DNA from: a bacterium
GTDB lineage: Bacteria > Patescibacteriota > Minisyncoccia > UBA6257 > 02-FULL-45-10c
DNA: 46,194 nucleotides
Reading direction: 5' to 3'
Assembly: GCA_021786945.1 (NCBI GenBank)
Contig: JAJYMK010000003.1
Coordinates: 103,105 to 149,298 of the forward strand
Every line of letters begins with the position of its first letter. The stretch's first letter is position 1. Made by a program: the position numbers and the translations under genes. Below, piece after piece: positions 8,426 through 44,361 of the stretch. The notes beneath the pieces were generated by a model. It was not told the DNA's origin, made no database searches, and saw nothing but the letters and a program-made list of their open reading frames with translations.

Positions 8426-8458
8426 ATTTAAATTGCAACTTAACATAAGGAGGAATTT

Positions 8459-8770
8459 ATGGTTCAGACACTTCAGCCGGAGTGGAAGAGGGGCGACAGA
8501 AGGAAGCGGAACCGGAGACCGCATGTGCAGCTTAAGCCTATCGAGCGGGTGCTCTATGTCCGCTGGTATGCTTATCTGCTCAAGGCGCTGCATAATAACC
8601 TGAGAGGCGTAAAGGTGGGGGCTTATATATATAAGCCCAAAAATCCCGACTGCCTTCTTCCTCAGGATGCGGTGCGCGACGAGCTCAGGCACGTGTTCAT
8701 GGAGGACTGGAAGTGTTCGCTGGCCTTCAACGATATCGACAACCAGATCCACATGCTGGATCGCAGGTAG
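8459..8770 (+). CDS. Hypothetical 103-aa protein with a basic N-terminus, on a GC-rich SD-led cassette.
   Basis: AAGGAGG at 8447-8453 lies 5 nt before the ATG and a terminator follows directly. Of three overlapping ORFs in this GC-rich patch, only this one has an SD, a promoter and a terminator in register. Confidence 0.65.
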   Translation: MVQTLQPEWKRGDRRKRNRRPHVQLKPIERVLYVRWYAYLLKALHNNLRGVKVGAYIYKPKNPDCLLPQDAVRDELRHVFMEDWKCSLAFNDIDNQIHMLDRR

Positions 8771-8786
8771 ACTGGCCATAAAAAAC

Positions 8787-8819
8787 AAACCCGTGGAGTT
8801 ATTGCTCCGCGGGTTTTTT
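8787..8819. terminator. Bidirectional hairpin terminator.
   Basis: aaacccgtggag-ttattg-ctccgcgggttt with A/T runs on both sides. The stop codon of the minus-strand permease (8799-8801) lies in the loop. Confidence 0.8.
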
Positions 8820-11147
8820 ATTTATTATTTTGTCGCAAATTTTCTTCCAGATGGCTTTTGGAAAACTTTCATATCCCTTTACTATCATAAGCGGCACATC
8901 TAAATGTTTGGCTAAAAGCTCCGAAATATCTCCAAATCTTATTTCTTTCAAAAACTTTGTTTCCGTTGCGCCTATAATCAACAAATCCGCTTCTTCTTTT
9001 TTTAGATTTTCTATTATTCCCGAAACTATTGATTTTGATCTGGCAAATTCGATTTCGTTAAAATCTTTCTTTTTAAGCTTTAGGGATTTGAGCAGTGGCC
9101 CATAGTCTGGTTTGAAATAGCGGGGAATATCAATGTTAATAATTCCTAATAGTTTTGTTTTTGGCTGGAAATAGTTTGTTATGCCCTTAAATATTTCTCC
9201 GGCTTTTTCCGAGTAAGCTCCGGTTCCCGATGGATTGCCGGCTACGATCAATGATTTTATAGGTTTAGGATTTTTAATTACGAGTAAATCACACTTTGCT
9301 TCTCTGAGAATTTGGTCAATTTTATAATTAAAGATAGTTCCTTTGGTATGTGTATAGCCCTCCCAATTCAAAAGAAGGATATCGCAATCTTCCATTTTTA
9401 CTATATCCAAAATAGTTTCCACGGAGTCTCTGCCAGCCATCAGGAGATTGTGAAAATTAATATCCTTTTTAATGCCCGGCATTTTTTCATTGAATTCTTC
9501 GGCCCAATCTTTGATATTGTCCAGAATTTGTCTGTCATGGTCCATTTTTGCGCCCTCGAGCAGAGGAAGGGTTTGTGGTACTTCATGAATCTTGGCTATT
9601 ATAATTTCTCCGTCAAAATAACTAGCCAATGCAAAGGCAATTTCAACCAGGTTTTTAAGCTCCTCGATGCTTAAATTTGATTCAATAGGAAGTAAAATTC
9701 TCTTGCCTGATTTTGGCCCAACTCTTAAGGCTTCTTCGTAGACTATTTCATTTTCGAATTTTTCACGGCTTTGTGCCAGGGAATAGGAATAGTAATTTAC
9801 CAGTCCTATCAGTAGCCAAACAAATGTTACTATCCAAGCTGTAATATTAATTTTGAGCATCGTAAGGGCCAGGAGAATATAGATAAACGAAGCTAATATC
9901 GGAGTGAGCGGAAATAAGGGAATCTTGTAAACCCATTTTGTATTCGGCCACTTAAAGTGAATATTTATTCCCGCGAGATTTAACTGAAGAAAAAGAATTA
10001 TAAAAAGTAAGCTTGCCGCACTGGCTACATCGAAAAGGGGCAGCGAAATAATCATTATTTCTATAAGAGCTATTGAAACAGTCACGGCTACATAAGGAGT
10101 AAAATTTTTAATATGTATTTTAGATATATGGGAAATAATATTTTTGTCTCTGGCCAGAGCAAAAGAAACGTGGCTAGATGAATAAATTGTTGCATTAAGT
10201 GCAGCCAGGTTTGCCAATATACCGGCGACGAGCATTAGTATTTTTCCGAAGGGTAAAACAGTCTGTGCGGTTTTAACAATCGCTCCTTCTCCGAACGAAC
10301 TTAGAGTTTGCCAGATCGGCGTGCCGCCGCTAGGCGTGGCGCCCAAAACAACAAAGGTTATTAAAATATACAGCAGGGAAACTATAGCCCATGAGGTTAT
10401 TAATCCTATTTTTAAATCCCTTGCCGGATTTTTTGTTTCTTCCCCGGCTTGTACCTGTATCTCCGATCCTTCAAATGCAATATAAAAAAAGCTTGCCGCG
10501 GCTATTACACCCAACAAACCCGAAGGCAAAAATGGAGTGAAGTTTTTTAAAGGCTCTGGATTTATAGATATTTTCCAAAAGCCAAAAATAAGGAAAAGTA
10601 AAAGTATGGCCAACAAGGCTACAGTTGTTACGTTACTGGCTTTTGCGGTTACTTTTGCACCCTTCCAATTTACATAACCAAAGATTAACACTGTTATAAA
10701 TGCTATAAACTTTGCACTGGTAAGCCAGGGGAAGGTATCAGATTGGATATTCAAAATATGAAAAAGTTCTCGGGCGTAAAAGCCGAAGCTGAGCGCATAA
10801 ACTCCGCAAGCTGAAGCATGAGCAAACCAGCTTAGCCAGCCCGCCAGAAATCCCTGGAAATTACCAAGTCCTTTTTTTACCCATAAGTATCCTCCTCCGG
10901 CTTCCGGGAATGTCGTTCCTAAGGCTAAATACATTTGAAGGTTTAAAAATGCCACGGCGGAACCTAGAACCATTGATAACATAAGTCCGGGACCGGCTAT
11001 TCCTGCAGCCGGGCCCAATAAAGTAAAAATACCGCCTCCAATAAGGGAGCCTATACCCATAAAGACTATTGAGGCCGGGCCTAAAGTCTTTGCAAGGGTA
11101 ATGCTGGTTGGCGAAGCAAGATTTATAGACCCCGATTCTTTATTCAT
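8799..11147 (-). CDS. APC-family amino acid permease fused to two C-terminal universal-stress-protein (Usp) domains.
   Basis: About 12 TM helices with a typical APC N-terminus ('GIGSLIGGGIFTLLG'). The C-terminal roughly 300 aa form two alpha/beta Usp-like halves ('ILLPIESN...', 'DLLVIK', 'ADLLIIGA'). Confidence 0.85.
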   Translation of the reverse strand: MNKESGSINLASPTSITLAKTLGPASIVFMGIGSLIGGGIFTLLGPAAGIAGPGLMLSMVLGSAVAFLNLQMYLALGTTFPEAGGGYLWVKKGLGNFQGFLAGWLSWFAHASACGVYALSFGFYARELFHILNIQSDTFPWLTSAKFIAFITVLIFGYVNWKGAKVTAKASNVTTVALLAILLLFLIFGFWKISINPEPLKNFTPFLPSGLLGVIAAASFFYIAFEGSEIQVQAGEETKNPARDLKIGLITSWAIVSLLYILITFVVLGATPSGGTPIWQTLSSFGEGAIVKTAQTVLPFGKILMLVAGILANLAALNATIYSSSHVSFALARDKNIISHISKIHIKNFTPYVAVTVSIALIEIMIISLPLFDVASAASLLFIILFLQLNLAGINIHFKWPNTKWVYKIPLFPLTPILASFIYILLALTMLKINITAWIVTFVWLLIGLVNYYSYSLAQSREKFENEIVYEEALRVGPKSGKRILLPIESNLSIEELKNLVEIAFALASYFDGEIIIAKIHEVPQTLPLLEGAKMDHDRQILDNIKDWAEEFNEKMPGIKKDINFHNLLMAGRDSVETILDIVKMEDCDILLLNWEGYTHTKGTIFNYKIDQILREAKCDLLVIKNPKPIKSLIVAGNPSGTGAYSEKAGEIFKGITNYFQPKTKLLGIINIDIPRYFKPDYGPLLKSLKLKKKDFNEIEFARSKSIVSGIIENLKKEEADLLIIGATETKFLKEIRFGDISELLAKHLDVPLMIVKGYESFPKAIWKKICDKIINKKPAEQ

Positions 11148-11200
11148 AGAGATATGATATTATTTTATCATCCGGTGATTTTTTGTTAAACTCATTAAAT

Positions 11201-11274
11201 CGGACTGTAGTATAACGGTAGTATACACCCTTGGGGTGGGTGCGACCCGGGTTCAACTCCCGGCAGTCCGACCA
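11201..11274 (+). tRNA. tRNA-Pro (anticodon GGG) with an encoded CCA.
   Basis: Acceptor cggactg/cagtccg; anticodon stem caccc/gggtg with loop tt-GGG-gt; T arm ccggg-ttcaact-cccgg; 3' acca. Confidence 0.85.
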
Positions 11275-11300
11275 GATTTTAAAAATGTTATAATTTATAT

Positions 11301-12434
11301 ATGATATTTTTGGATTTAAAAACTATTTTCATTTCAAACATAGCGATTTCTTTTATTTGCACGTTAATTTTTGTATCTCTATGGTTAGATAATAAAAATA
11401 TTTTCAGAGGGCTTTCTCTTTGGGTCGCAGGAATGGCTGCTCAATTATTAGGATCATTACTTATTTTATTGCGTGGAATCATTCCTGATTTTTTATCCAT
11501 CGTAATTGCAAATCTATTTATCGTTGGCGGTATTTTGGTTTTTTATATTGGATTCCGAGCTTTTATGGAAAAACCAGGAAGGCAAATAGTAAATTATATT
11601 TTATTGGCTTTTTTTGGAGGTGTTATATATTATTTTTCAGCCATTACTCCTAGTTTATATATTCGCACCGTGGCTTTGGCTGGAATATTTTTATTTTTTT
11701 CTTTGCAATGGGTTTGGTTTTCTTTATACACCATTAAAGGAAGCCTCCGCAGGTTAACTGCGGGAATTGGATTTGTATTTATTGTTTATTGTTTAGCTAA
11801 TTTGGCGAGAATCATTGTGGCTATAACCGGTTCCGAAAATATTGGTAATGATTTTTTTGCTTCAAATCAATTTGATACATGGATCGTTTTTGTTTATTCA
11901 TTATTAATAATCTTAATTGCTTATAATTTAATTCTATCGGTAAATAGACGTTTGTCGGTTCAAGTTGCTTTTCAAGAAGAGAAATTCAGAACTGCTTTCC
12001 GCGAGGCCCCGTATGCCGTGTTGTTTACGCATTTTTCCAATGGCCAGATTGTTGATATCAATAAATCTTTTTCCGAGATGATGGGTTATTCAAGCTCTGA
12101 AGCTGTGGGTAAAACAACTTTAGAATTGGGTATTTGGTTAAATTTTGATGATAGGAAGATTTTTGTTGATCAATTGAGTGCCGGAGGCAGCATCTCGAAT
12201 TATAATTTTAAATACAAGACTAAGTCTGGAAAAATAATTATTGGCGCAACTTGGGCTGATGTTATTGAGGTTGGTAATGAGCAATATATTTTATCCACCA
12301 TTATTGATGTAACTGAAGATACAAACGATAAGGAGAGTTTAAAAAAGATGAATGAATTTTTGGTTGGCCGCGAAATTAAAATGACGGAATTAAAAAATAA
12401 AATTAAAGAATTGGAAGAAAAAAATAAATCTTAA
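11301..12434 (+). CDS. Multi-TM membrane protein with a C-terminal PAS domain and a coiled-coil tail; no recognisable output domain.
   Basis: About 7 TM helices, then 'FREAPYAVLFTHFSNGQIVDINKSFSEMMGYSSSEAVGKTTLELGIW' (PAS pattern). TGTTATAAT (11286-11294) is followed by 6 nt and then the ATG. Confidence 0.75.
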   Translation: MIFLDLKTIFISNIAISFICTLIFVSLWLDNKNIFRGLSLWVAGMAAQLLGSLLILLRGIIPDFLSIVIANLFIVGGILVFYIGFRAFMEKPGRQIVNYILLAFFGGVIYYFSAITPSLYIRTVALAGIFLFFSLQWVWFSLYTIKGSLRRLTAGIGFVFIVYCLANLARIIVAITGSENIGNDFFASNQFDTWIVFVYSLLIILIAYNLILSVNRRLSVQVAFQEEKFRTAFREAPYAVLFTHFSNGQIVDINKSFSEMMGYSSSEAVGKTTLELGIWLNFDDRKIFVDQLSAGGSISNYNFKYKTKSGKIIIGATWADVIEVGNEQYILSTIIDVTEDTNDKESLKKMNEFLVGREIKMTELKNKIKELEEKNKS

Positions 12435-12439
12435 AATCT

Positions 12440-14070: not shown

Positions 14071-14171
14071 AATTCATATATTATATATTTAATTGTATTA
14101 ATCGTCAATAATAGTTGTTGTAACTTAGTTATAACTTTTTAATTTTTAATTTTAAGTTTAGAATAAAGAGT

Positions 14172-15905
14172 ATGATAGACGCGGTTTCCACAATCAAAGA
14201 AAAAATAGATGTAGTTGATTTTTTGAGCCAATACATAAAGCTAACGCCTGCCGGAAAAAATTTTAGGGCGGTTTGTCCTTTCCATAAGGAAAAAACTCCG
14301 TCACTTATGGTTTCACCGGACAAGCAGATTTGGCATTGTTTTGGCTGTGGTAATGGCGGCGACGTAATTAAGTTTTTGATGCTTTATGAAAATTTAGAAT
14401 TTTTTGATGCTTTGAAGGTTTTGGCCGAAAAAGCGGGAATAAATTTGGATATTTTGGGCGGTCGGGATTTTAAAACTTACGACGTTATTTATAAAGTAAT
14501 GGAGTCTGCCAAGGAATTTTTTAGGCTCAATCTTTATAAATCCGATGAAGTAAAAGATTATCTGAAAAACCGAGGATTGAAGGGTGAGACCGTGAAAGAA
14601 TTTGAGCTTGGTGTGGCATTGGATGATTTTGATGCTTTATCCCGTTATTTATTGAAAAAAGGTTTTAGTATTAGCGATATAGAAAAAGCTGGTCTGGTTT
14701 TCAAAACCGAAAGGGGAACATATTGGGACCGTTTCCGTGGCAGGTTAATGTTTCCTTTATATAATCATGTCGGCAAAGTTGTTGGTTTTACCGGCAGGAT
14801 TCTTCCTGGGCGTGATGATAAAAATACTGGTAAATATGTAAATAGTCCTGAAACTCCGATTTTTCAAAAATCCAAAATTCTTTATGGTTTTCACAAAACA
14901 AAAGGCGATATTCGCGAAGCTAAGGCCGCTATTTTGGTTGAGGGTCAGATGGATTTTTTGATGATGTGGCAGGATGGCGTGAAAAATGTTGTGGCTACCT
15001 CGGGTACGGCTCTGACACCGGATCATCTTAAGACTTTAAGAAAGCTAGCCGAAGATCTGATTTTAAGTTTTGATGCCGATGCCGCCGGTCAAGCCGCTGC
15101 CGAAAGAAGCATAGATCTTGCTTCCGGTTTAGATTTTTCGGTAAAACTTCTTATTATCGATGATCCGAAATTTAAGGATCCGGCGGATGTGGTAAAAGAA
15201 AAGCCGGGACATATTTCCGAACTTTTAATTTCCGCGAAGCCGGCTATGGAATATTATTTTTATAAATATCTTTCCGATAAAGAAGGGGCGATTGATTTTA
15301 AAAAAAATAAGCACAACTTGAGAGTGGTGCTTTCTAAAATAAAAAACCTTTCCAGTTCTATAGAAAAAAATCACTGGATAAAACAATTGTCCGGAATCTC
15401 TAAGGTCAACGAAGAGGTTCTTATAGAAGAAATGGAATCGCTTAAGGAGTCCGCTCCAATAAATAAACCCGAAGATGAGGTATTGGCTTCGCCCGAGCAG
15501 GAATTTTCGAGAGTCGATCTTATTTGCCAGCGTTTAATTGGGTTAGCTTTGAATGACCCGTCTGTTAAAGCTAAAATGCCGGAATATATTGAATATTTCC
15601 CGGAATTTTATAAAAAACTTTATAAGGGCGGTAAGTTGGATGGCTCTATGGAGAAAATTTCTGAGCTTATTAGCCTTAGATTTAGCTTTGAAAGTGGCAA
15701 TATGAAGGAAGATGGCCTGGAAAAGGAGTTTGATCAGCTTATAAGAGAGCTAAAACTGGGTTATTTTAAGGAAAAACAGCAGAAAATAAGGCTTGAAATC
15801 GAGGTTTTAGAGCAATCCGGGGATGAAGACGGCCTGGCCGCCAAGATGAAGGAGTTTGACACTGTTTCTAAAGAAATGCATAATATAAGGGCAGGGTTGA
15901 AATAA
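14172..15905 (+). CDS. dnaG: DNA primase.
   Basis: The CHC2 zinc finger 'CPFHKEKTPSLMVSPDKQIWHCFGCGNGGDVIKF' and TOPRIM motifs 'ILVEGQMDFL...SFDADAAGQAA'. Confidence 0.93.
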   Translation: MIDAVSTIKEKIDVVDFLSQYIKLTPAGKNFRAVCPFHKEKTPSLMVSPDKQIWHCFGCGNGGDVIKFLMLYENLEFFDALKVLAEKAGINLDILGGRDFKTYDVIYKVMESAKEFFRLNLYKSDEVKDYLKNRGLKGETVKEFELGVALDDFDALSRYLLKKGFSISDIEKAGLVFKTERGTYWDRFRGRLMFPLYNHVGKVVGFTGRILPGRDDKNTGKYVNSPETPIFQKSKILYGFHKTKGDIREAKAAILVEGQMDFLMMWQDGVKNVVATSGTALTPDHLKTLRKLAEDLILSFDADAAGQAAAERSIDLASGLDFSVKLLIIDDPKFKDPADVVKEKPGHISELLISAKPAMEYYFYKYLSDKEGAIDFKKNKHNLRVVLSKIKNLSSSIEKNHWIKQLSGISKVNEEVLIEEMESLKESAPINKPEDEVLASPEQEFSRVDLICQRLIGLALNDPSVKAKMPEYIEYFPEFYKKLYKGGKLDGSMEKISELISLRFSFESGNMKEDGLEKEFDQLIRELKLGYFKEKQQKIRLEIEVLEQSGDEDGLAAKMKEFDTVSKEMHNIRAGLK

Positions 15906-19469: not shown

Positions 19470-19525
19470 GAATATACTTTAGGTAGAAACTTAATATAAA
19501 TCTTCCAGACGAAGGAGGTGGTTAT

Positions 19526-19891
19526 ATGAGTCGGCCGCGGCTACGTAAGCGCGATAATGTAGCAGAAATGATTTTGAAAGAAGTTTTGCTGGAAATGCAG
19601 AAAGACGATCTGATTTCCGGGTTCATACAAAGCCGTAAGAACGATAGACTTGATATGGAGGGTATAGATTTTCTTTTGTTTTTGAAAAATGATCTTTCCC
19701 TTGCCGTTCAGGTCAAAACTCATTCACGGAATCATAAGCGTTGTATAGATAAGCATTTCAGAAGGCACCCGCTTATAAAGTTCGTACTTTTTATAAAGAT
19801 TGGATTTTATAATCGCCGTCCGGAAACAGCTTCCCGTTACATAAAGGAAGAAATAAAGTCTTTTATAAAGCAGTCCATGTCCCGCCAATAA
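19526..19891 (+). CDS. Small PD-(D/E)xK-like (restriction-endonuclease-fold, DUF4365-like) protein, paralog 1.
   Basis: AAGGAGG at 19512-19518. The motif order is 'E...EGIDFLLFL...LAVQVKTHS'. It is a paralog of the next ORF. Confidence 0.6.
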   Translation: MSRPRLRKRDNVAEMILKEVLLEMQKDDLISGFIQSRKNDRLDMEGIDFLLFLKNDLSLAVQVKTHSRNHKRCIDKHFRRHPLIKFVLFIKIGFYNRRPETASRYIKEEIKSFIKQSMSRQ

Positions 19892-19909
19892 AATTGGCGG
19901 GATTTTTTT
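19881..19909 (+). terminator. Rho-independent terminator with the stop codon in or next to the loop.
   Basis: cccgccaat-aaa-attggcggg followed by attttttt. Confidence 0.8.
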
Positions 19910-19996
19910 AATTTAAAACAAGCCTATTGAATTATCCGGAATAAGAGGTATATGCTTAAATTAGAATCTTGAATTTCCGTATAAGGGGGAAAATTT

Positions 19997-20341
19997 ATGG
20001 AGTCCGACGACAGAGGGGCCAAAGCCGAAGAAGCCGTCAAAAAAGCTCTGGGCATCATGGAGAAAGAAAGGGGAATAAACGGCTTTTATCAGAACAAGAA
20101 GAACGGCGAGGTGGATGAGCTGGGAATAGATTTTCTTGTTTATTTGAAGGGCGGGCTTATTTTACCCATACAGGTAAAGGCCTCTTCCAAAGACAACGAA
20201 AATCGCCGGCTGAAACACCTTAAGAAGCATCCCAAAATAAATCTCATTATTTTCGTGGATGTTGAGATGTATAAAAAGCGTCCGGAAAAGGTGCTGGACT
20301 CTATATTGAAGGAAGTGGAGGAATTTTTAAAAGGAAAGTGA
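19997..20341 (+). CDS. Small PD-(D/E)xK-like (DUF4365-like) protein, paralog 2.
   Basis: SD AAGGGGGA at 19983-19990. 'E...LGIDFLVYLKGGLILPIQVKASS' and 'KKHPKINLIIFV' align with paralog 1. The stop codon is TGA. Confidence 0.6.
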   Translation: MESDDRGAKAEEAVKKALGIMEKERGINGFYQNKKNGEVDELGIDFLVYLKGGLILPIQVKASSKDNENRRLKHLKKHPKINLIIFVDVEMYKKRPEKVLDSILKEVEEFLKGK

Positions 20342-20346: not shown

Positions 20347-20377
20347 ATCCCGCCGTAAAACCGGCGGGATTTTTTTT
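20347..20377 (+). terminator. Rho-independent terminator.
   Basis: atcccgccg-taaaac-cggcgggat followed by ttttttt. Confidence 0.85.
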
Positions 20378-20447: not shown

Positions 20448-20744
20448 ATGAAGTTAAATTTAAAACCTTTAAATGACCATCTCTTTATAGAACCGGTCGC
20501 CGAAGAAAAAATGACCAAGTCGGGTATAGTTTTGCCGGAGTCGGCCGAGAAAGAAAAGCCGATAAAAGGTATTGTAGTTGCCGCTGGGCCGGGAAAAATG
20601 GACGAAAAGGGTAATAGAATAAAAATGTCCGTTAAGGTTGGGGATATGGTTCTTTTCAGGAAGTACGGTCCGGATGAAATTATGATAGACGGTAAAAAAT
20701 ATTTGGTCGGAGAAGAAAACGATATTTTGGCAATTATTTTTTAA
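20448..20744 (+). CDS. groES: Co-chaperonin GroES.
   Basis: 'LKPLNDHLFIEPV...KSGIVLPESA...GIVVAAGPG'. Confidence 0.95.
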   Translation: MKLNLKPLNDHLFIEPVAEEKMTKSGIVLPESAEKEKPIKGIVVAAGPGKMDEKGNRIKMSVKVGDMVLFRKYGPDEIMIDGKKYLVGEENDILAIIF

Positions 20745-20750
20745 TTTACT

Positions 20751-22397: not shown

Positions 22398-22410
22398 CAA
22401 GGTTTTAAAA

Positions 22411-22441
22411 ATCTCTCCGATGAACTCGGGGAGATTTTTTT
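22411..22441 (+). terminator. Rho-independent terminator of groESL.
   Basis: atctctccg-atgaact-cggggagat followed by ttttttt. Confidence 0.85.
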
Positions 22442-22505
22442 ATTGACTGTTAATATTTTTTGTTTTAGGTTTAAACTAGAACTTTGATTTAAAAAGGAGA
22501 AGGCA

Positions 22506-22676
22506 ATGACTAAGCGTAAAGTTGGTGTCAGAAAAATTTTGCTGAACATAGCAAATTTTTTGTATATATCTCTTGTTTTTTTAATAGCACTTTTCTTTAT
22601 ATGTGCAATACTTTTTGCTTTAGCTTACGGTTTTTTCATTATGGTGGATGGTCTCCCATATATTTTTTATCACTAA
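22506..22676 (+). CDS. 56-aa hydrophobic (1-2 TM) peptide, below the ORF-track length cutoff.
   Basis: SD AAGGAGAAGG (22494-22503), then ATG 22506. The translation is MTKRKVGVRKILLNIANFLYISLVFLIALFFICAILFALAYGFFIMVDGLPYIFYH, with stop TAA at 22674-22676. An imperfect hairpin plus T-run follows. Confidence 0.45.
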   Translation: MTKRKVGVRKILLNIANFLYISLVFLIALFFICAILFALAYGFFIMVDGLPYIFYH

Positions 22677-22756
22677 AAATAAATCCCCCTCGTTATTAGA
22701 CGGAGGATTTTTATTTTTGTGGGGCTTGTCCCATACTTAATTTTTTAAGTGTGGGG

Positions 22757-22786
22757 TTGACTTACTTTTAGAGAAGAGTTTAATAA
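22757..22786 (+). promoter_or_regulatory. Sigma70-type promoter of metacaspase-like cassette A.
   Basis: TTGACT (22757-22762), 17-18 nt, then TTAATA/TAATAA. It is preceded by a 10-bp hairpin at 22730-22755. Confidence 0.5.
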
Positions 22787-22839
22787 AAGTAGAGGCTTAA
22801 AAATATATATTGGCTGAAAAGCTAAAGGGGGTGAGGAAA

Positions 22840-23556: not shown

Positions 23557-23590
23557 GCTCCGATTTCGCATCGGAGCTTTTTATTTTTTG
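23555..23590 (+). terminator. Rho-independent terminator.
   Basis: aagctccgat-ttcgc-atcggagctt followed by tttatttttt. Confidence 0.85.
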
Positions 23591-23593
23591 CTA

Positions 23594-23621
23594 TTGATTT
23601 TTTTGCCACAAGCAGTATAAC
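23594..23621 (+). promoter_or_regulatory. Sigma70-type promoter of metacaspase-like cassette B.
   Basis: TTGATT (23594-23599), 16 nt, then TATAAC (23616-23621). Confidence 0.55.
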
Positions 23622-23656
23622 TAAAAGTAGATTCTTTAAAAAAGGAGGTGGGGAAA

Positions 23657-24388: not shown

Positions 24389-24405
24389 TCGGGCGGCTTT
24401 TTATT
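24378..24405 (+). terminator. Rho-independent terminator with the stop codon in the loop.
   Basis: agccgtcc-taatc-gggcggct followed by ttttatttt. Confidence 0.8.
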
Positions 24406-24440
24406 TTATAAAAATAAGAAAAAGTGATAAAATACCAATT

Positions 24441-33287: not shown

Positions 33288-34424
33288 ATGAAAATTAATT
33301 GGCAAATAAAAAAGCTAGGTGAGATAGGCACTATTTTCAATGGTAATAGCATTAATGAGAAGATTAAAAAAGAAAAATATCTTGGTTTGAGAGAGGGTCT
33401 TCCTTTTATTGCAACAAAAGATGTTGATTTCGAAACCCATATAATTAATTACGAGAACGGTGTAAAAATTCCTTTTATAGAAAAGTCCTTTAAGATTGCT
33501 CATAAAAATTCTATTTTAATTTGTTCTGAAGGCGGAAGTGCGGGCAAAAAAATAGCTTTCAATGAAAAAGATATTTGTTTTGGTAATAAATTATTTGCAA
33601 TTGAAACCAACGGGCATACCGATCCTAAATTTGTTTATTATTGGTATTTAACGCCCGTATTTTTTAATAGCTTTAAACATCAAATGAATGGAATTATTGG
33701 TGGAGTTTCTATCAGTAATTTCAAAAATATAGAAATCCCCATCCCGCCTCTTTCTGAACAAAAAAGAATTATAAAAATTTTGGATGAGGTTTTTGATAAA
33801 ATTGCTAAGGTAAAAGAAAATACTGAAAAAAATTTACAAAATACCAAAGACCTTTTTGAGTCGTATTTGCAAGGTGTTTTTACGAATCCAGGTGGGGGTT
33901 GGGAAGTGGTTGATTTTGAGAATTCTATTGAAAGGGTTGTATATACAAATAAAATTCAAAGAAATAAGTTTTTACAATCTGGTAAATTTCCAGTTGTTTC
34001 TCAGGAAAAGGATTTGATAAACGGATATTGGAATGAAGAAGGAGATTTGTTTCGTGTAATAACCCCAGTTATTATTTTTGGGGATCATACGCAGATTTTA
34101 AAATATATCGATTTCGATTTTGTACTTGGTGCGGATGGAGTCAAAATATTGCAACCTAAAAAAATATTACAACCAAGGTTTTTCTATTATTTTTTAAGGA
34201 GTGTTAATTTAAAAAATCTTGGTTACGCGAGGCATTACCGCTTATTAAAAGAAAAACATGTTTTTTTTCCAAAATCTATTTCTGAACAAAAATCCATTGT
34301 CAAAAAACTTGATGTGCTTTCGGCTGAAACCAAAAAACTAGAGGCAATTTATAGGCAAAAATTGGAGGATTTAGAGGAATTGAAAAAGTCGGTCTTAAAG
34401 AAGGCTTTTAGTGGGGAATTGTAA
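33288..34424 (+). CDS. hsdS: Type I restriction-modification system, specificity subunit S (two TRDs).
   Basis: 'WQIKKLGEIGTIFNGNS', the central conserved region 'IPIPPLSEQKRIIKILDEVFDKI', and the distal 'SEQKSIVKKLDVLSAETKKLEAIY'. Confidence 0.92.
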   Translation: MKINWQIKKLGEIGTIFNGNSINEKIKKEKYLGLREGLPFIATKDVDFETHIINYENGVKIPFIEKSFKIAHKNSILICSEGGSAGKKIAFNEKDICFGNKLFAIETNGHTDPKFVYYWYLTPVFFNSFKHQMNGIIGGVSISNFKNIEIPIPPLSEQKRIIKILDEVFDKIAKVKENTEKNLQNTKDLFESYLQGVFTNPGGGWEVVDFENSIERVVYTNKIQRNKFLQSGKFPVVSQEKDLINGYWNEEGDLFRVITPVIIFGDHTQILKYIDFDFVLGADGVKILQPKKILQPRFFYYFLRSVNLKNLGYARHYRLLKEKHVFFPKSISEQKSIVKKLDVLSAETKKLEAIYRQKLEDLEELKKSVLKKAFSGEL

Positions 34425-34425
34425 T

Positions 34426-35115
34426 ATGAATCTAGTTGAATTTATAAAAGAATATCAGTCTTTGGTAGGCTCGTTTTTAGCGGTCATATCGTCTTTGTTT
34501 ATAGTGTTTATAAATTTTTATATTAACAGGAGGAAAGAAATAAGGGGGAGCAAAAAAGAAATAGAAGAAATTTTTTTGATGGCAGCGAGGGAGAGTGAGG
34601 ACATTGTTAAGGATTTAGAGTATTTTCTTTTTGAAGCGAGAAAGAAGTTACAAAAAAGAGAAGCGGGCATGCTTGTTTTTGTGCCGCCAAAATTTAACAG
34701 GATATATTTGAATGAAGAAAGACTTTTTGGTTTAAAAAAGAATCTGGGCTTTATTTTATCACAACAAGTTGATATAGCCACCTCTTCTGGTAAAAAATTA
34801 AATGGATATTTAAATCATTTCGAAAATGGCCCAGGCCTTATTTTCGATAAAGCGATCAAAGTTTTAGAGGTAGAATTAATGACCAAGGACAAAGCTATAG
34901 GAGTCTATATAAAGGATTTAGAGAATTACTTAAATGGAATTGAGAAAATTTTAAGCGGCGAAATTGGCATAGCGCAAAAACATCTTTTGAGGCCGGTAGT
35001 GGCCCAAAAGCATGGGGAGTGTGAGTTGGACAAAATGCCCTTAGAAATTTTAGATAAGATTTTAGACAAAGAAACAGAGATAGTATTACTAGATTTAAAA
35101 CAAAAATTATCTTAG
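34426..35115 (+). CDS. Unknown 229-aa protein with an N-terminal TM anchor and a helical cytoplasmic domain, embedded between hsdS and hsdR.
   Basis: The ATG lies 1 nt after the hsdS stop. The TM helix is 'LVGSFLAVISSLFIVFINFYI'. I recognise no family motif. Confidence 0.65.
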   Translation: MNLVEFIKEYQSLVGSFLAVISSLFIVFINFYINRRKEIRGSKKEIEEIFLMAARESEDIVKDLEYFLFEARKKLQKREAGMLVFVPPKFNRIYLNEERLFGLKKNLGFILSQQVDIATSSGKKLNGYLNHFENGPGLIFDKAIKVLEVELMTKDKAIGVYIKDLENYLNGIEKILSGEIGIAQKHLLRPVVAQKHGECELDKMPLEILDKILDKETEIVLLDLKQKLS

Positions 35116-35125
35116 TATATCAACA

Positions 35126-37438
35126 ATGAACGAATCAGAAACAAGAGCCGAATATATTGACCCGAAGCTTAAGGCGAGCGGTTGGGGTGAAGTTGAAGGA
35201 TCAAAGATCTTGAGGGAATTTAGAATTACCGATGGGCGTATTCAGGTGGGCGGCGTTCGCGCGAAGCCGGAAATTGCCGACTATATTTTGGTTTATAAAA
35301 ATAGAAAGATTGGCGTGATAGAGGCTAAGGCTGAAAGTTTGGAAGCGACTGAGGGTGTTGCGCAAGCTAAATCTTACGCTGAAAAATTACACATTGATTA
35401 TACTTATTCCACTAATGGCAAGGAAATTTATGAAATATCCATGAAAAACGGGCGTGAGGTGATTATTGATAAATTTCCAACACCCGACGAGCTTTGGGAC
35501 AAAACTTTTTCCGATCAAAATGAATGGAAAGATAAATTTTCATCAATTCCATTTGAGGATGTAAATGGCACTAAGGGGGTGCGATATTATCAGGAAATTT
35601 CTGTAAATAATACGCTTAATGCTATTGCCGAAGAAAAACAAAGGATATTGCTTACTTTAGCCACTGGCACGGGAAAAACATTTATTGCTTTTCAGATTGC
35701 TTGGAAGCTTTTTCAAACAAGATGGAATTTAAAGCGTGATGGAAATAGGCGCCCGAGAATTTTATTTCTTGCCGATCGAAATATTTTAGCAGATCAGGCA
35801 TTTAATGCTTTTTCGGCTTTTCCGGAAGATGCCTTGGTTCGCATCAATCCGCTTGATATTCGTAAACGCGGAGCAGTGCCGACCAGCGCCAACGTATTTA
35901 TTACCATTTTCCAAACTTTTATGAGTGGCTCAAATAATACGCCGTATTATGGTGATTATCCGCCAGATTTTTTTGATTTGATTATTATTGACGAATGTCA
36001 TCGCGGAGGTGCAAATGATGAGGGCAATTGGCGCGGAATTTTGGAGTATTTTTCTCCGGCCGTTCAGCTTGGTTTAACCGCTACACCAAAAAGGAAAGAT
36101 AATGTTGATACATATAAATATTTTGGCGACCCAGTTTATATTTACTCGCTTAAGGAGGGTGTAAACGACGGATTTTTGACGCCGTTTAAAGTTAAGCGTA
36201 TTCAAACCACTCTTGATGAATATGTATACACTTCCGATGATCAGATTATTGAGGGAGAAATAGAAGAAGGAAAGATATATGAAGAGGCTGATTTTAATAA
36301 GATTATTGAAATTAAAGAAAGGGAAAAGAAAAGGGTAGAAATTTTATTAAATGAAATAAATCAAGACGAAAAAACAATTGTTTTTTGCGCTAATCAAAAT
36401 CACGCATTGGCTGTAAGGGATTTGATTAATCAGTTTAAAGAAAGCTCTAATCCTAATTATTGTGTTCGTGTTACGGCAAATGATGGTGCTCGAGGAGAGC
36501 AATTTTTACGAGAGTTTCAAGACAATGAAAAAACTATCCCGACTATTTTGACGACCTCGCAAAAACTTTCAACCGGAGTGGATGCGCGTAATATTAGAAA
36601 CATAGTTCTGATGCGCCCTGTAAATTCTATGATTGAGTTTAAGCAGATTGTTGGGCGGGGAACCCGTCTTTTTGATGGAAAAGACTATTTTACAATTCTT
36701 GATTTTGTGGGGGCGTATAAACATTTTTCTGATCCTGCATGGGACGGTGAGCCAATAGACGAAACAGTTGAGTCTGATATCGAAAAAGTTTCCGTAGTAA
36801 AAGAACCAAAAGCACAATATGACGCCAGCATTAAATTTGAAGAAGATTTTGAATCTAAGAAAAAATTGAAGATTAAATTACGCGATGGAAAAGAGCGGGA
36901 AATTCAACATATGATCTCTACTTCGTTTTGGAGCGCAGATGGGAGGCCGATATCTGTAGAAGAATTTTTGAACAATATGTTTGGGGCCTTGCCAGAGTTT
37001 TTTAAGAGCGAAGAGGAACTAAGAAAAATATGGTCAAACCCCACCACGAGAAAAACTTTTTTGGAAAAGATCGCCGAGGCTGGCTACGATAAAGATTTGT
37101 TAGAAACATTACAAAAAATGATAGACGCAGAAGATAGTGATTTGTTTGATGTATTGGCGTATATCTCCTTTGCCGTGAAACCGATTTCTAGAAAAGAACG
37201 TGTAATTGAAACAAAAAATGAAGTTTTAGATCATCTTGATGAAAGGACGAAAGATTTTTTAGAATTTGTTTTGAATAAGTATATTGAAAGAGGAGTTGAA
37301 GAGCTTGATGAAGAAAAGTTGCCGCAATTGCTTAATTTGAAATATCACGCGATTGCTGATGCCGTAAATATCCTTGGCGATGTAGATAAAATTCGTTCAA
37401 CTTTTTTTGATTTTCAGAAAAATTTATATAGTAAGTAA
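35126..37438 (+). CDS. hsdR: Type I restriction enzyme, endonuclease/translocase subunit R.
   Basis: N-terminal 'ESETRAEYIDPKLKASGWG', Walker A 'LATGTGKT', DEAH-type 'IIIDECHRG', 'LTATPKR', and helicase motif VI 'QIVGRGTR'. Confidence 0.95.
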   Translation: MNESETRAEYIDPKLKASGWGEVEGSKILREFRITDGRIQVGGVRAKPEIADYILVYKNRKIGVIEAKAESLEATEGVAQAKSYAEKLHIDYTYSTNGKEIYEISMKNGREVIIDKFPTPDELWDKTFSDQNEWKDKFSSIPFEDVNGTKGVRYYQEISVNNTLNAIAEEKQRILLTLATGTGKTFIAFQIAWKLFQTRWNLKRDGNRRPRILFLADRNILADQAFNAFSAFPEDALVRINPLDIRKRGAVPTSANVFITIFQTFMSGSNNTPYYGDYPPDFFDLIIIDECHRGGANDEGNWRGILEYFSPAVQLGLTATPKRKDNVDTYKYFGDPVYIYSLKEGVNDGFLTPFKVKRIQTTLDEYVYTSDDQIIEGEIEEGKIYEEADFNKIIEIKEREKKRVEILLNEINQDEKTIVFCANQNHALAVRDLINQFKESSNPNYCVRVTANDGARGEQFLREFQDNEKTIPTILTTSQKLSTGVDARNIRNIVLMRPVNSMIEFKQIVGRGTRLFDGKDYFTILDFVGAYKHFSDPAWDGEPIDETVESDIEKVSVVKEPKAQYDASIKFEEDFESKKKLKIKLRDGKEREIQHMISTSFWSADGRPISVEEFLNNMFGALPEFFKSEEELRKIWSNPTTRKTFLEKIAEAGYDKDLLETLQKMIDAEDSDLFDVLAYISFAVKPISRKERVIETKNEVLDHLDERTKDFLEFVLNKYIERGVEELDEEKLPQLLNLKYHAIADAVNILGDVDKIRSTFFDFQKNLYSK

Positions 37439-39443: not shown

Positions 39444-39827
39444 ATGACACTAAAAAAATTTACTTTAATATCTTTAATAATTTTTGCTGTAATTATTCTG
39501 GCTATTTATATAGCCGGAATTTTTGGAGGATCGGGAAACGGCGCTTCCTTGCAAAACCGGAGTTCGCAGCAGACTGCCACTACTACGGCTAAAAATTTTC
39601 CGGCTTTTTCTATGGATGATGTTTCCAAGCACAATCTTCCTACGGATTGCTGGCTGGTGATAAACAGCAAGGTATATTCTGTTTCTACATATATAGGCAA
39701 CCATCCCGGAGGGGCGGATGCTATCATTTTTAATTGCGGAAAAGAAGTAACCGGAATATTCGCCCAGATTCATTCTAATAGCGCTTGGGATTTATTGGCT
39801 AAATTTCAAATCGGAACAATCAAATAG
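39444..39827 (+). CDS. Membrane-anchored cytochrome b5-like heme-binding protein.
   Basis: An N-terminal TM helix, then 'HNLPTDCWLVINSKVYSVSTYIGNHPGGADAI' (Cyt-b5 HPGG signature). Confidence 0.85.
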   Translation: MTLKKFTLISLIIFAVIILAIYIAGIFGGSGNGASLQNRSSQQTATTTAKNFPAFSMDDVSKHNLPTDCWLVINSKVYSVSTYIGNHPGGADAIIFNCGKEVTGIFAQIHSNSAWDLLAKFQIGTIK

Positions 39828-39852
39828 TTTTTCCGTCAAAAAATAAATCAGA

Positions 39853-39974
39853 AAAAATGTTTCCATTATTCCCGCTATAGCGGAATTTATAGAAACATTT
39901 TTAAATTTCAATCTGCTACATTATAAAATTACAACATTATATAAGATTAATCTGATATAGTGTTCCGCTTTTTT
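39853..39974 (+). repeat. 122-bp direct repeat, copy B.
   Basis: See copy A. The two copies are offset by exactly 1900 bp. Confidence 0.95.
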
Positions 39975-39990
39975 TTCTAAAAATAAATAA

Positions 39991-40024: not shown

Positions 40025-40036
40025 GTTAAAGAACTT

Positions 40037-40858
40037 CTATTCCGGTTTACAGACGCTGGCGGCGCCCACGAAGTATGCCCTCGAGTCGTCCCACCATGCC
40101 TGCACCCGCAGCCCGTCCTCCTTGAACGGACCGATTGTTACCCTGCGGCCGCTATGGTCCAGCTCCGCACACCTGGCCATGCTTTCCTCGAACATCACAG
40201 TCCCGGTTTTCAGGATGTGTCCGAGGGCGGCGTAGGCAGCTATGCGTACAGAGACCGAATCGCTCAGCTGGCCAAACATATGCAGCTGATCGACCCACTC
40301 CTTGTTGAGGGAGTTTTCCGGTGCCTGCTTGCGGATGAGGTACCAGCCCACTTTTCCTTCCTCCCAAGAGAAGCGCTCCTGTTTGAACCAGGGGGCTTTC
40401 TCGGTATCGTCGAGGCCGAAGAAAGGTCTGAGGTTTTTATTCTCAAACATCTGCAGCAACGACATCGGAAACACCGCCACAAGGACGTGCGTGTCTTTGC
40501 ACTCCTTAAGGGTGACTTCCGAGAAGGGGACGTCGTCCAGTTCCGCTATCTGGTTTTTGTCCGGGCGAAGATTGAGGTGCTCTATAGCATCCTCAATGCC
40601 AAAGAAGTTATTTCCCATAATTTCTTTGGCGGCTTTCTGACTCTTGGTCGGGTGGTACACACCGTTCCTTAAGACATAAAGCATTTCACTGGCGACTACG
40701 TTTCCTTTCGACTCGATCACGCGCTGAGCATCCTGAGGCGTAATACCGGCCCTTTCCAGGCGCAGAAGTAATTCATGTTCCTGGTGTACGGACAGCTTGT
40801 GCTCTTCGGGTGCTTTGCGAGTAATCTTCTCAAGGATCCGGCTCACGATATTTCCCAT
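40037..40858 (-). CDS. Hypothetical 273-aa protein on a strongly GC-enriched, SD-led cassette.
   Basis: AGGAGGT (complement of 40866-40872) lies 7 nt before the ATG (40858-40856). TGTTATAAT is upstream on the minus strand and a terminator lies directly downstream. Five overlapping ORFs on both strands reflect stop-codon paucity in this GC-rich patch. Confidence 0.7.
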   Translation of the reverse strand: MGNIVSRILEKITRKAPEEHKLSVHQEHELLLRLERAGITPQDAQRVIESKGNVVASEMLYVLRNGVYHPTKSQKAAKEIMGNNFFGIEDAIEHLNLRPDKNQIAELDDVPFSEVTLKECKDTHVLVAVFPMSLLQMFENKNLRPFFGLDDTEKAPWFKQERFSWEEGKVGWYLIRKQAPENSLNKEWVDQLHMFGQLSDSVSVRIAAYAALGHILKTGTVMFEESMARCAELDHSGRRVTIGPFKEDGLRVQAWWDDSRAYFVGAASVCKPE

Positions 40859-40989
40859 ATCGCATACCTCCTATCGAATTTTACTCATTTTTAACGAACA
40901 AAATATATTATAACAGATATTTGGCAATTAGTCAATTTATAGAAATTTCTGTGAATTATATGAAATTAGGGGTAAGTTATAATAAATAT

Positions 40990-41235: not shown

Positions 41236-41240
41236 TTTTT

Positions 41241-41268
41241 AATCCCGCTTTAATGGCGGGATTTTCTT
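41241..41268 (+). terminator. Rho-independent terminator.
   Basis: aatcccgc-tttaatg-gcgggatt followed by ttc ttt. Confidence 0.7.
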
Positions 41269-41285
41269 TGTAATTAATTAAAAAC

Positions 41286-43541: not shown

Positions 43542-43552
43542 TTAGAAAAACC

Positions 43553-44083
43553 ATGAATATTAAAAATAATTTTTTGATTAAAGGATCGGCGGGACTTATT
43601 GCTGTAATAGTAGTTGCGGTTTTAGTAATCGGAGGCGGGGCATATTTTATGTTCAAAAAATCACCCGAGCAAAAAGCTGCTCAGGTTCAGGAGGATGTCG
43701 CCAATATTGGCGCTTCTATACCGAGCCTTGATTTTTCTTTGTCCTATATGCCTAACCTGGAAATATCTTCCTTGAACGTTGCTGCGCCGGAAGTTTCTGC
43801 CGGAAATATATTTTCCGCTCCTTCGGTAGAAAGTAACTTTTCTGTAAGTACCGGTAATTTGGATATAACAACGCCCTCGGTTTCTACTGACTCTTTGAAA
43901 TTTGATATACCATCGATTCCTACAAGCATGCCATCGGGTTCTTCCGGCAGCGTAACCCCGGCGCCTTCAACCGGATCCGGCAGTCAGCCGTCTGTTGATT
44001 GTTCTGTGTTTGCAGCTGTACCAAGCTGTGCTATGACTGGTCCTGGAGAGGCTATGTGCAAGCAGTGTTTTCCTAATAAATAA
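43553..44083 (+). CDS. Anchored Ser/Pro-rich protein with a Cys-rich C-terminus, hypothetical.
   Basis: TM helix 'GLIAVIVVAVLVIGGGAYFMF', an S/P-rich linker, and 'CSVFAAVPSCAMTGPGEAMCKQC'. Confidence 0.65.
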   Translation: MNIKNNFLIKGSAGLIAVIVVAVLVIGGGAYFMFKKSPEQKAAQVQEDVANIGASIPSLDFSLSYMPNLEISSLNVAAPEVSAGNIFSAPSVESNFSVSTGNLDITTPSVSTDSLKFDIPSIPTSMPSGSSGSVTPAPSTGSGSQPSVDCSVFAAVPSCAMTGPGEAMCKQCFPNK

Positions 44084-44087
44084 TAAA

Positions 44088-44110
44088 AATCCCCGCGTTA
44101 AGCGGGGATT
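44088..44110. terminator. Bidirectional hairpin terminator.
   Basis: aatccccgc-gttaa-gcggggatt between convergent genes. Confidence 0.8.
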
Positions 44111-44114
44111 TATT

Positions 44115-44312
44115 TTATATGTTGGCTTTCTGGAGCTTCCAGTCGGGGGTGGTCTGTAAAGAATTGCGGAAAACCATGCTCAGGATCAGATCGTGGAACT
44201 TTTTGGGTTCCAGGGCCGGAAATTTACCCTTCACCGAATTGTAAACTTCCTTTTCCTCGCACGGCTTGCTGCAAACTTCCAGCACCTCCTTTTCAACTTC
44301 GTTTTGGGTCAT
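44115..44312 (-). CDS. Hypothetical 65-aa protein on a GC-enriched SD-led cassette.
   Basis: GGAGGT (complement of 44317-44322) lies 4 nt before the internal ATG (44312-44310; MTQNEVEKEVLEVCSKPCEEKE...). Confidence 0.55.
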   Translation of the reverse strand: MTQNEVEKEVLEVCSKPCEEKEVYNSVKGKFPALEPKKFHDLILSMVFRNSLQTTPDWKLQKANI

Positions 44313-44361
44313 AATAACCTCCAATAATATTCTTTCAGAGCCTTTTAAGTAGCTATCCACC

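Follow-up and report, generated by a model that had tools for sequence, protein, structure and literature searches.

The window analyzed here is a stretch of 46 kb (46,194 nt) of contig JAJYMK010000003.1 with a GC content of about 38% and about 45 genes, almost all on the plus strand, plus tRNA-Pro and tRNA-Ser. This report deals with eight of these genes, termed SD1 to SD8, which are preceded by strong Shine-Dalgarno (SD) sequences in a genome where most genes have none. Pfam matches in the window identified trpS, dnaG, rpoD, groES/EL, lemA, htpX, mscL, a gene for a VanW protein and a type I restriction-modification (R-M) system as well as a split ComEC, ndk, a ferric-reductase/cytochrome b5 pair and an amino-acid permease-Usp fusion. 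DUF5667 and DUF5671, which are typical of genomes of the Candidate Phyla Radiation (CPR), were among the matches, too. GroEL was 87-89% identical to the homologues of the metagenome-assembled genomes (MAGs) JAUSKP01 and JAJYZL01, 73-75% to those of two other MAGs and at most 56% to those of named CPR groups. The lineage-specific proteins of the window had homologues mainly in Paceibacteria/Parcubacteria MAGs. The window derives from a member of the Patescibacteria (CPR) that is of the Paceibacteria/Parcubacteria type. Its gene order recurred in shorter, independent contigs of the same strain that stem from other samples, thus the chimeric assembly that the initial annotation wished to see excluded does not apply.

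The strength of SD sequences was scored with RNAduplex, by which the 20 nt in front of every one of the 45 starts were paired with an assumed canonical 3' tail of 16S rRNA (ACCUCCUUU). The starts separated into two groups: eight open reading frames (ORFs) reached -8.9 to -13.5 kcal/mol, while the remaining 37 were at -6.4 kcal/mol or above, most of them above -3.5. The distance between SD and ATG was 5-9 nt in all eight strong-SD genes. An energy of -8.9 or lower was attained by 2.0% of the 1092 ATGs in the window, which for 8 of 45 starts corresponds to a binomial P of 3e-6, and all other strong SD matches in the window were located inside coding regions. The initial annotation had postulated eight ORFs with strong SDs next to a backbone without them. 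The bimodal distribution bears out both statements, and every motif that had been listed was found at its position.

The groES-groEL operon (20448-22397, plus strand) exemplifies the backbone in that neither gene has an SD (+2.5 and +2.8 kcal/mol). Likewise, the internal operon genes trpS, groEL, htpX, VanW, hsdS, hsdR, cytochrome b5 and hyp176 all scored above -4 kcal/mol; the regions upstream of trpS, htpX, VanW, hsdR and cytochrome b5 are A/T-rich. Using the same gene caller and metric, strong SDs were seen in 32-65% of the genes in Bacillota loci, compared with 0-24% (in most cases 0-13%) in 17 loci regarded as belonging to CPR or the nearest relatives. Among the neighbors of SD7 homologues 25 of 500 genes (5%) were SD-led, mostly coding for small hypothetical proteins.

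At least 11 genes of the window carry TATAAT-like boxes at a spacing of N5-N9 from the ATG. All seven genes for which such a -10 box had been reported have it at 5-9 nt, and mscL, rpmB, the amino-acid permease and ComEC are further examples. Orthologous starts in relatives keep the spacing of TATAAT to ATG. Exact TATAAT boxes accumulate 6-8 nt before the start codons of the window as well as of related loci: among 455 genes without SD from AT-rich loci of relatives they occurred 14, 4 and 6 times at spacings of 6, 7 and 8 nt, and 0-3 times at any other spacing. None of the 46 SD-led genes of related loci had an exact TATAAT at spacings of 0-16. Furthermore, the 455 SD-less starts displayed an A-frequency of 0.46-0.51 at positions -6 to -2 versus about 0.38 further upstream, and a T at -1. 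The data suggest that the mRNAs of first genes of the backbone are leaderless or near-leaderless.

The -10 boxes of several SD-led cassettes read TAGAAT, TAGAAC or TAGATT after C/T/G (19962-19967, 22477-22482, 23630-23635 and, in the related locus L170, upstream of 5753), those of leaderless-type genes mostly (T)GTTATAAT. This contrast may reflect a different promoter subclass.

The coordinates of the eight SD-led genes with their signals and of the leaderless-type starts are compiled in the table. The 5' untranslated regions (5'UTRs) predicted for the cassettes are short (about 15-42 nt) and have the SD close to their 5' end. Intrinsic terminators are present behind all eight genes; initially they had been claimed for most of them. 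The claim that their hairpins abut or include the stop codon needs qualification: the stop codon is inside the hairpin in three cases, the hairpin follows 3-5 nt past the stop in another three and 15-16 nt past it in two. SD2/SD3 and SD5/SD6 are paralogue pairs, in which whole cassettes consisting of promoter, SD and terminator are duplicated in tandem. A generic sigma-70 promoter scan of the window was uninformative because AT-rich DNA yielded 57 matches with 55 expected.

Table. Features of the SD-led cassettes and leaderless-type starts in the window (aa, amino acids; CDS, coding sequence; GC3, GC content at third codon positions; x/y, positions of -10 box and ATG)
Feature	Position	Strand	Remarks
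SD1 promoter-like TTGACT-17-TATTAT	8397-8425	+	
SD1 SD AAGGAGG	8447-8453	+	
SD1 CDS	8459-8770	+	103 aa; Arg-rich N-terminus; GC3 0.72
SD1 terminator hairpin	8787-8816		shared with convergent permease gene
SD2 SD AAGGAGGTGG	19512-19521	+	
SD2 CDS	19526-19891	+	121 aa; PD-(D/E)xK-like motifs E..D..D-F..QVK
SD2 terminator	19879-19903	+	stop codon within hairpin
SD3 -10 box TAGAAT	19962-19967	+	
SD3 SD AAGGGGG	19983-19989	+	
SD3 CDS	19997-20341	+	114 aa; PD-(D/E)xK-like; GC3 0.54
SD3 terminator	20347-20370	+	
SD4 SD AAGGAG	22494-22499	+	
SD4 CDS	22506-22676	+	56 aa; GC3 0.25
SD4 terminator	about 22681-22712	+	
SD5 SD AAGGGGGTGAGG	22825-22836	+	
SD5 CDS	22840-23556	+	238 aa; legumain/caspase-like; SGHG and DCCYG motifs
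SD5 terminator	23555-23579	+	stop codon within hairpin
SD6 SD AAGGAGGTGGGG	23642-23653	+	
SD6 CDS	23657-24388	+	243 aa; legumain/caspase-like
SD6 terminator	24374-24402	+	stop codon within hairpin
SD7 promoter	-35 TTGACT 40935-40930; -10 ending 40907	-	17 nt to TG-TATAAT; 5'UTR about 42 nt
SD7 SD AGGAGG	40872-40867	-	
SD7 mRNA hairpin	40840-40868	-	5' arm: last two G of SD, spacer and AU of AUG; 3' arm: codons 4-7 (ATCGTGAGCC)
SD7 CDS	40858-40037	-	273 aa; GC3 0.68
SD7 terminator	about 40021-39988	-	
SD8 SD GGAGG	44322-44318	-	
SD8 CDS	44312-44115	-	65 aa; GC3 0.65
SD8 terminator	44111-44087	-	bidirectional
TATAAT-N6-ATG, PAS-domain gene	11289-11303	+	leaderless-type start
TAGAAT-N7-ATG, dnaG	14159-14174	+	leaderless-type start
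TATAAT-N6-ATG	18786/18798		leaderless-type start
TAAAAT-N7-ATG, lemA	24428/24441		leaderless-type start
TAAAAT-N6-ATG, mscL	ATG at 28467		leaderless-type start
TATAAT-N9-ATG, hsdM	30640/30655		leaderless-type start
TATAAT-N6-ATG	38127/38139		leaderless-type start
TATAAT-N6-ATG	40978/40990		leaderless-type start

Imperfect direct repeats of 22-24 nt bracket SD1 (8375-8396 and 8813-8834; 86% identity) and SD7 (39884-39907 and 40934-40957; 79% identity). They were rejected as target duplications, as their similarity is at chance level for AT-rich sequence; probably they are due to chance.

Most of the cassettes had been described as lying in GC-richer patches. This applies to four of the eight, SD1, SD3, SD7 and SD8, whose GC3 values are outside the backbone range of 0.23-0.48. 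On the other hand, three SD-led genes are at or within the top of that range (0.41-0.48) and SD4 is low (0.25). As a class the SD-led genes had a higher GC3 than the backbone (Mann-Whitney p=0.0008), while GC at codon positions 1+2 was not elevated (p=0.44). The GC-rich part of the cassettes is limited to the coding sequence; promoters and 5'UTRs are AT-rich. In the family of the 273-aa protein SD7 the median GC3 excess over neighboring genes was +0.29 for 50 homologues from genomes of 30% to 59% GC. Its persistence over this range speaks for a constraint on synonymous sites that is intrinsic to the family, rather than for the composition of a donor. A general rule that SD-led genes are GC3-rich was rejected: across Paceibacteria the effect was marginal for SD-led neighbor genes (+0.02, p=0.04), thus it is family-specific.

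In related loci, denoted by L and a number, orthologues of seven of the eight genes were detected, which represent all six families and only one copy of the SD2/SD3 pair. The proteins are about 48-70% identical. Most of the genes are located in the same neighborhoods and all have nearly the same SD. The SD1 orthologue in L166 shares 68% identity, compared with 95% for the flanking ndk and 85% for the permease. Its SD is near-identical, promoter and 5'UTR are almost unchanged and better conserved than the CDS, and its GC3 is 0.62 versus 0.32-0.37 in the flanks. The differences between both genes are distributed 24/20/49 over the three codon positions; therefore, the plus frame of SD1 is coding. 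Only two homologues of SD1 are known.

The orthologue of SD3 in L170 (68% identity, -10.8 kcal/mol) is located between an NTase gene and groES as in the window. The SD4 orthologue in L081/L082 has the start AAAAAGGAGGGAAATT|ATG with -12.3 kcal/mol. SD5 orthologues are present in L081, L170, L171 and L172; the two starts that were read scored -11.2 (L081) and -13.5 kcal/mol (L170). The SDs of SD6 orthologues include AAAGGAGGTGAGGAAA and AAAGGAGGTGATTGAA. SD8 has an orthologue in L081/L082 with 47.5% identity, the SD AAAGGAG and a GC3 of 0.52, and another in L088 with the SD AGGAGG immediately 5' of an SD7 homologue. In L081/L082 the trio SD4-SD5-SD6 adjoins lemA, and SD8 and SD7 are near DUF5671 and ferric-reductase genes. 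The upstream sequences of the SD4, SD5, SD6, SD8 and SD7 orthologues there are AAAAAGGAGGGAAATT, GGGGGGTGAGGAAA, AAAGGAGGTGAGGAAA, AAAGGAGAGGCCT and GGAGGTGTGCG, respectively. No SD precedes EF-Tu, EF-G, S7, S12, tyrS or LemA in the same locus, where TATAAT-N6-ATG is seen at many starts. The contrast of SD-led orthologues and SD-less neighbors recurred in L083, L085, L166 and L170-L172; SD-less housekeeping genes beside SD-keeping orthologues also include GroES/EL and HtpX-type genes. The SDs of orthologues reach AAAGGAGGTGA(T), of which 11-12 nt are perfectly complementary to the canonical 3' tail of 16S rRNA. Such SDs would make little sense with another tail and argue that this lineage probably has the canonical one.

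The interval between groEL and lemA is variable. In the window (22400-24440) it holds SD4-SD5-SD6, in L170 (4418-6550) a different SD-led ORF of 107 aa plus both peptidases in swapped order, and in L002 (2160-3290) a different SD-led ORF of 99 aa.

The taxonomic spread was searched widely for two families. The 273-aa family comprised 38 homologous clusters with organism names from Patescibacteria/Minisyncoccota only and 79 genomic loci, almost all from Paceibacteria MAGs; L090, L101, L113, L150 and L153 stem from genomes with multiple copies. The peptidase family of SD5 and SD6 comprised 13 clusters, again with source names from Patescibacteria/Minisyncoccota only. Neither family had homologues in the IMG/VR viral contigs. 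For the PD-(D/E)xK-like family 97 representative clusters were obtained from a library without taxonomy. In the window, neither an integrase nor a transposase adjoins the cassettes. Most of the orthologues in L081/L082, L083, L088, L166, L170 and L172 reside in the same neighborhoods. With their SDs kept, and with both widely searched families nearly confined to Patescibacteria, the class is not accounted for by recent transfer from a donor that uses SDs. Thus, of the two origins that the initial annotation offered, horizontal acquisition from a higher-GC host or phage was not supported, while the special regulon holds in the sense of a conserved class, with the SD kept in orthologues of seven of the eight genes. 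To call the class previously unannotated was too strong, as public MAG records list these genes as hypothetical proteins.

The start regions of the SD class (-25 to +40) fold more stably than those of the backbone with a median of -9.3 versus -4.6 kcal/mol (p=0.001), and the first 60 coding nucleotides are more stably folded as well. In the SD7 family the SD is joined to a conserved spacer, GGAGGTRTGCS|ATG. The spacer TRTGCS forms a helix of 9-10 bp with codons 4-7 (AT[C/G/T]GTGAGCC). In an alignment of 28 SD7 homologues 98.4% of the cells were paired, compared with 28-40% when the partners were slid by 1-3 columns. Pair 24/44 was GC in 11, CG in 9, GU in 5, AU in 2 and UG in 1 of the sequences, the change being coupled to an Ile/Met replacement. 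None of 500 shuffles reached the covariation score of the hairpin. RNAalifold independently predicted the same helix, and the minimum-free-energy fold of the window's own sequence contains it. The hairpin had no Rfam match.

Hairpins that sequester SD or AUG are known from RNA thermometers (ROSE, fourU) and from translational operators. Like these, the SD7-family hairpin is a short, imperfect one that includes G-U pairs and a single internal mismatch, and it pairs part of the SD and the start codon. It differs from them in that it has no sequence similarity to them and its 3' arm is coding. A function as a gate or thermometer would be compatible with the data.

In a second subfamily of the 273-aa protein, with the N-terminus MKWTEIP (e.g. 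in L111, L115, L130, L141, L144, L147 and L153), a long leader is conserved about 100 nt upstream of the match at 6001. GTCTC..GAGAC-AAGACGTAA-hairpin (loop ATCGTA)-AGTCGCC..GGCTAACAG makes up this leader, and a weak SD comes after it. Covariation was seen in its last stem (CG 13/UA 4 and UA 9/CG 8). Rfam gave no match for the leader in L114 (E up to 1) or in ten more loci (gathering score). The leader is a candidate for a new cis-regulatory RNA. In two Paceibacteria loci LOOT RNA (RF03000) was matched with 74-79 bits about 0.4-0.5 kb upstream of a 273-aa-family gene and on the opposite strand (L111 5407-5528 and L115 5472-5604, both minus). In L085 a gene for a 23S-rRNA-IVP/bAvd-like four-helix bundle (8152-8496) is situated amid short GC-rich tandem repeats (CGCGTAACG / CGCATAACG) between nifU and cysteine desulfurase genes, 1.5 kb from a 273-aa-family gene.

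The eight SD-led proteins had no hits above threshold in Pfam, PHROGs, PADLOC or NCBIfam; a Pfam match was missing for 8 of 8 SD-led genes versus 13 of 37 backbone genes. The AlphaFold model of SD6 had a pLDDT of 84.8, and Foldseek matched it to legumain, the GPI transamidase PIGK and caspase-11 with E=2e-6 to 1e-5 and a probability of 1.00. The family has an invariant H74 in SGHG and C112/C113 in DCCYG. Pfam models stayed below threshold and NCBIfam NF047832 matched only faintly. By predicted fold and His-Gly...Cys dyad, SD5 and SD6 appear to be divergent members of the clan CD cysteine peptidases (legumain C13/caspase C14). In the PD-(D/E)xK-like family D40, D45 and Q59 were invariant and K61 and E11 near-invariant among 28 sequences. 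These residues fit the motif of the PD-(D/E)xK nuclease superfamily, to which SD2 and SD3 may belong; no profile or structure comparison was significant and the PADLOC match was weak. SD4, whose basic N-terminus precedes a hydrophobic segment, is a putative small membrane peptide. The model of the 273-aa SD7 was confident (pLDDT 84.3) and had no significant fold match in the PDB. A likeness to C-type-lectin/FGE-like domains (E of at least 0.4) was too faint and was not relied on. SD8 is a small partner of SD7, the two being adjacent in L088, and SD1 is a basic protein. The proteins of the class diverge faster than those of flanking genes, as seen with SD1. Fast evolution, a tie to the lineage as far as tested and occasional duplication suit conflict or host-interaction functions, and the SD-class proteins may have such roles.

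We favor the view, as a probable one that leaves room for doubt, that SD1 to SD8 belong to a conserved class of accessory genes that evolve fast, depend on the SD and are gated by structure, in a genome that otherwise does without SDs. Bulk initiation would not require an SD: first genes with a -10 box 6-9 nt before the ATG would give rise to leaderless or near-leaderless mRNAs, and downstream operon genes would start in A/U-rich, weakly structured contexts. Every member of the SD class would be a self-contained unit of a single gene that has a promoter and a terminator to itself, a short 5'UTR and an extended, very strong SD. In the SD7 family the hairpin is predicted to block access to the AUG and to the SD in its 3' half. 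Most likely, strong pairing of SD and anti-SD lets the 30S subunit capture and open such structured starts. The two regimes might be regulated separately, e.g. by the balance of free 30S/IF3-dependent (initiation factor 3) versus 70S-type initiation. In E. coli the balance of initiation factors shifts leaderless and SD-led initiation against each other.

Several points weigh against this view. Genes of the related loci were predicted by a simple caller that always took the first ATG as the start, and the sample was confined to the window plus related loci of 5-20 kb. No 16S 3' end was found in the window (Rfam) or in 2.19 Mb of related loci (regular expression). The CCTCCT motif is absent from about half of the Parcubacteria 16S genes (Tsurumaki et al. 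2022, PMC9297842), and because of this loss we infer, rather than observe, that the ribosome makes use of the SDs. The 3' arm of the SD7 hairpin is coding, and part of its covariation may stem from few evolutionary events. SD-dependence and gating alone do not account for the GC3 excess seen in four genes and throughout the SD7 family. Finally, the turnover in the slot downstream of groEL in L170 and L002 means that the class has a mobile component, too.

A bolder version of the SD-dependent class extends to Paceibacteria in general and is put forward tentatively, as we deem it rather doubtful. Bulk translation would be free of the anti-SD, and the canonical tail would have been kept for a conserved SD-dependent regulon that is gated by a hairpin, comprises conflict or accessory genes (legumain/caspase-like peptidases, small nucleases, the 273-aa family) and is switched on by a change in the state of ribosome or initiation factors, by temperature or by host contact; the GC3 excess would have been selected at the RNA level.

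An alternative for the class is an intra-CPR pool of mobile cassettes, i.e. moron-like units that move and duplicate among Paceibacteria, carry complete expression signals to suit any context and have the average GC3 of the pool. The tandem duplications of whole cassettes, the multiple SD7-family copies in several genomes, the slot turnover and the imperfect repeats around SD1 and SD7 fit such a pool. Yet, neighborhood and orientation are conserved across relatives for most families, adjoining integrases or transposases are missing in the window, the repeats are at chance level, and a pool accounts neither for the covarying hairpin nor for the SD-less backbone. Phage morons are autonomous promoter-gene-terminator units of deviant composition. 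The cassettes resemble them as single genes with own promoter and terminator, sometimes deviant GC and a location between host operons. They differ by their residence in a cellular chromosome, in the same neighborhoods across species, and by the absence of phage context and viral homologues. We consider the pool unlikely as the explanation of the class; it is compatible with SD-dependence and does not exclude it. It is a partial rival, as is a role in mRNA stability.

In the latter case unusually long-lived transcripts would result from the combination of a GC-rich body with a tight hairpin at the 3' end and a strong SD near the 5' end, the SD being reminiscent of the stabilizing STAB-SD of Bacillus thuringiensis cryIIIA. 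The short predicted 5'UTRs, the terminators at the stop codon and the raised GC3 of four genes agree with this design, as does the report that CPR retain RNase J, RNase III and PNPase (PMC12641178). On the other hand, half of the genes are not GC-rich, backbone operons have strong terminators as well, and a pure stabilizer does not need the canonical spacing of 5-9 nt between SD and AUG that was seen in 8 of 8 genes. We rate a stability design as improbable.

Recent acquisition by horizontal transfer, from a host bacterium or phage that uses SDs and is richer in GC, would explain SD, promoter, terminator and GC as unameliorated signals of the donor. In its favor are the outlying GC3 in four of eight genes, the lack of Pfam, PHROG or NCBIfam assignments for all eight, the autonomy of each cassette and the variable content of the groEL-lemA slot. 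These features are outweighed by the near-exclusive occurrence of both widely searched families in Patescibacteria and their absence from viral contigs, by the SDs kept in orthologues of 48-70% identity, mostly in conserved neighborhoods, by 5'UTRs and promoters that are AT-rich and more conserved than the CDS, and by a GC3 that is ordinary or low in four genes and in excess across 30-59% GC genomes in the SD7 family. Therefore this origin is largely refuted and we regard it as very improbable. That the SDs are random purine runs or the ORFs not genes is next to impossible: although promoter-like matches abound in AT-rich intergenic DNA and SD1 has a longer ORF on the antisense strand, this artefact is refuted by the conservation data, i.e. 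homologues of conserved length in every family and a third-position-biased divergence of SD1, along with the binomial P and two confident AlphaFold models.

Group C of GeneMarkS-2 (Actinobacteria, Deinococcus-Thermus) combines leaderless first genes with SD-led other genes (PMC6028130). In both group C and the window the Pribnow box of first genes in operons is 6-8 nt away from the start codon, and an SD-type start model exists in the same genome. In group C internal operon genes and leadered genes in general are SD-led, whereas here the SD is restricted to few monocistronic accessory genes; internal operon genes and all housekeeping genes of the window lack it and so do S7, EF-G and EF-Tu in L081. 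The two regimes in one genome that had been proposed are real and belong to a category already described there; what sets the window apart is that internal operon genes have no SD, either. CPR are not mentioned in the searched parts of the paper (PMC6028130).

Bacteroidia have SD-blind ribosomes and retain a strong SD on rpsU (PMC7797042, PMC9976891, PMC13000453). The similarities are that SDs are rare, upstream contexts are A-rich and very few genes have an extended, conserved SD, which implies that their translation follows a special circuit; in our locus samples, too, SDs were rare and A was enriched before the start. In Bacteroidia, the SD-led gene codes for a ribosomal protein and has a demonstrated autoregulatory loop, and bS21/bS18/bS6 mask the anti-SD. 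Neither the window nor the related loci contain rpsU. Here, in contrast, several accessory families are SD-led and many backbone genes look leaderless. As part of the hairpin-gated regulon, and with the same hesitation, the SD-dependent class might be a multi-gene CPR counterpart of the bS21/rpsU circuit. The study of Parcubacteria by Tsurumaki et al. (PMC9297842) concerns the same broad lineage and independently indicates that pairing of SD and anti-SD is dispensable for bulk translation. It dealt with rRNA and ribosomal proteins and not with mRNA starts, and the extended SDs seen here argue that the canonical tail was kept.

Much of bacterial diversity belongs to the CPR/Patescibacteria, of which almost none are in culture and whose translation initiation is hardly described; in the literature searched, SD and Parcubacteria were treated together only in the rRNA work (PMC9297842). 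If the SD-dependent class is real, gene callers and expression designs for CPR need leaderless and A-rich start models, with strong SDs reserved for a special set of genes. The SD-led genes would then be a testable handle on why the anti-SD persists while most genes ignore it, a question that drove recent work on Bacteroidia. The SD/AUG hairpin of the SD7 family and the leader of the sister subfamily would be new candidate cis-regulatory RNAs in a group where few are known. Moreover, deviant GC together with own signals need not imply recent horizontal transfer.

Some gene assignments of the window were revised. The label comEC for 8799-11147 (minus strand) was wrong; this is the permease-Usp fusion, and ComEC is at 5134-7423. 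Of the other names, two were amended: mscL corresponds to 28467-28769, and 39444-39827 codes for a cytochrome b5-like protein. ComEC is made up of two ORFs that overlap, one with the Competence domain (5134-6573) and one with the metallo-beta-lactamase domain (6539-7423). On the independent contig L168 the gene was called in the same two parts, so it is either naturally split or carries a conserved frameshift.

The type I R-M operon (30655-37438; hsdM, hsdS, hsdR) is broken by three ORFs without Pfam matches (32096-32497, 32500-33285 and 34411-35115). The real low-GC outlier of the window is located at 32-34.5 kb with 28-31% GC and GC3 down to 0.23. Finally, directly after tRNA-Ser there is a stand-alone gene for a GIY-YIG nuclease of 92 aa (26097-26375) with a homologue in L171. 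It is preceded by a moderate SD-like GGAG at -14 with -6.4 kcal/mol.

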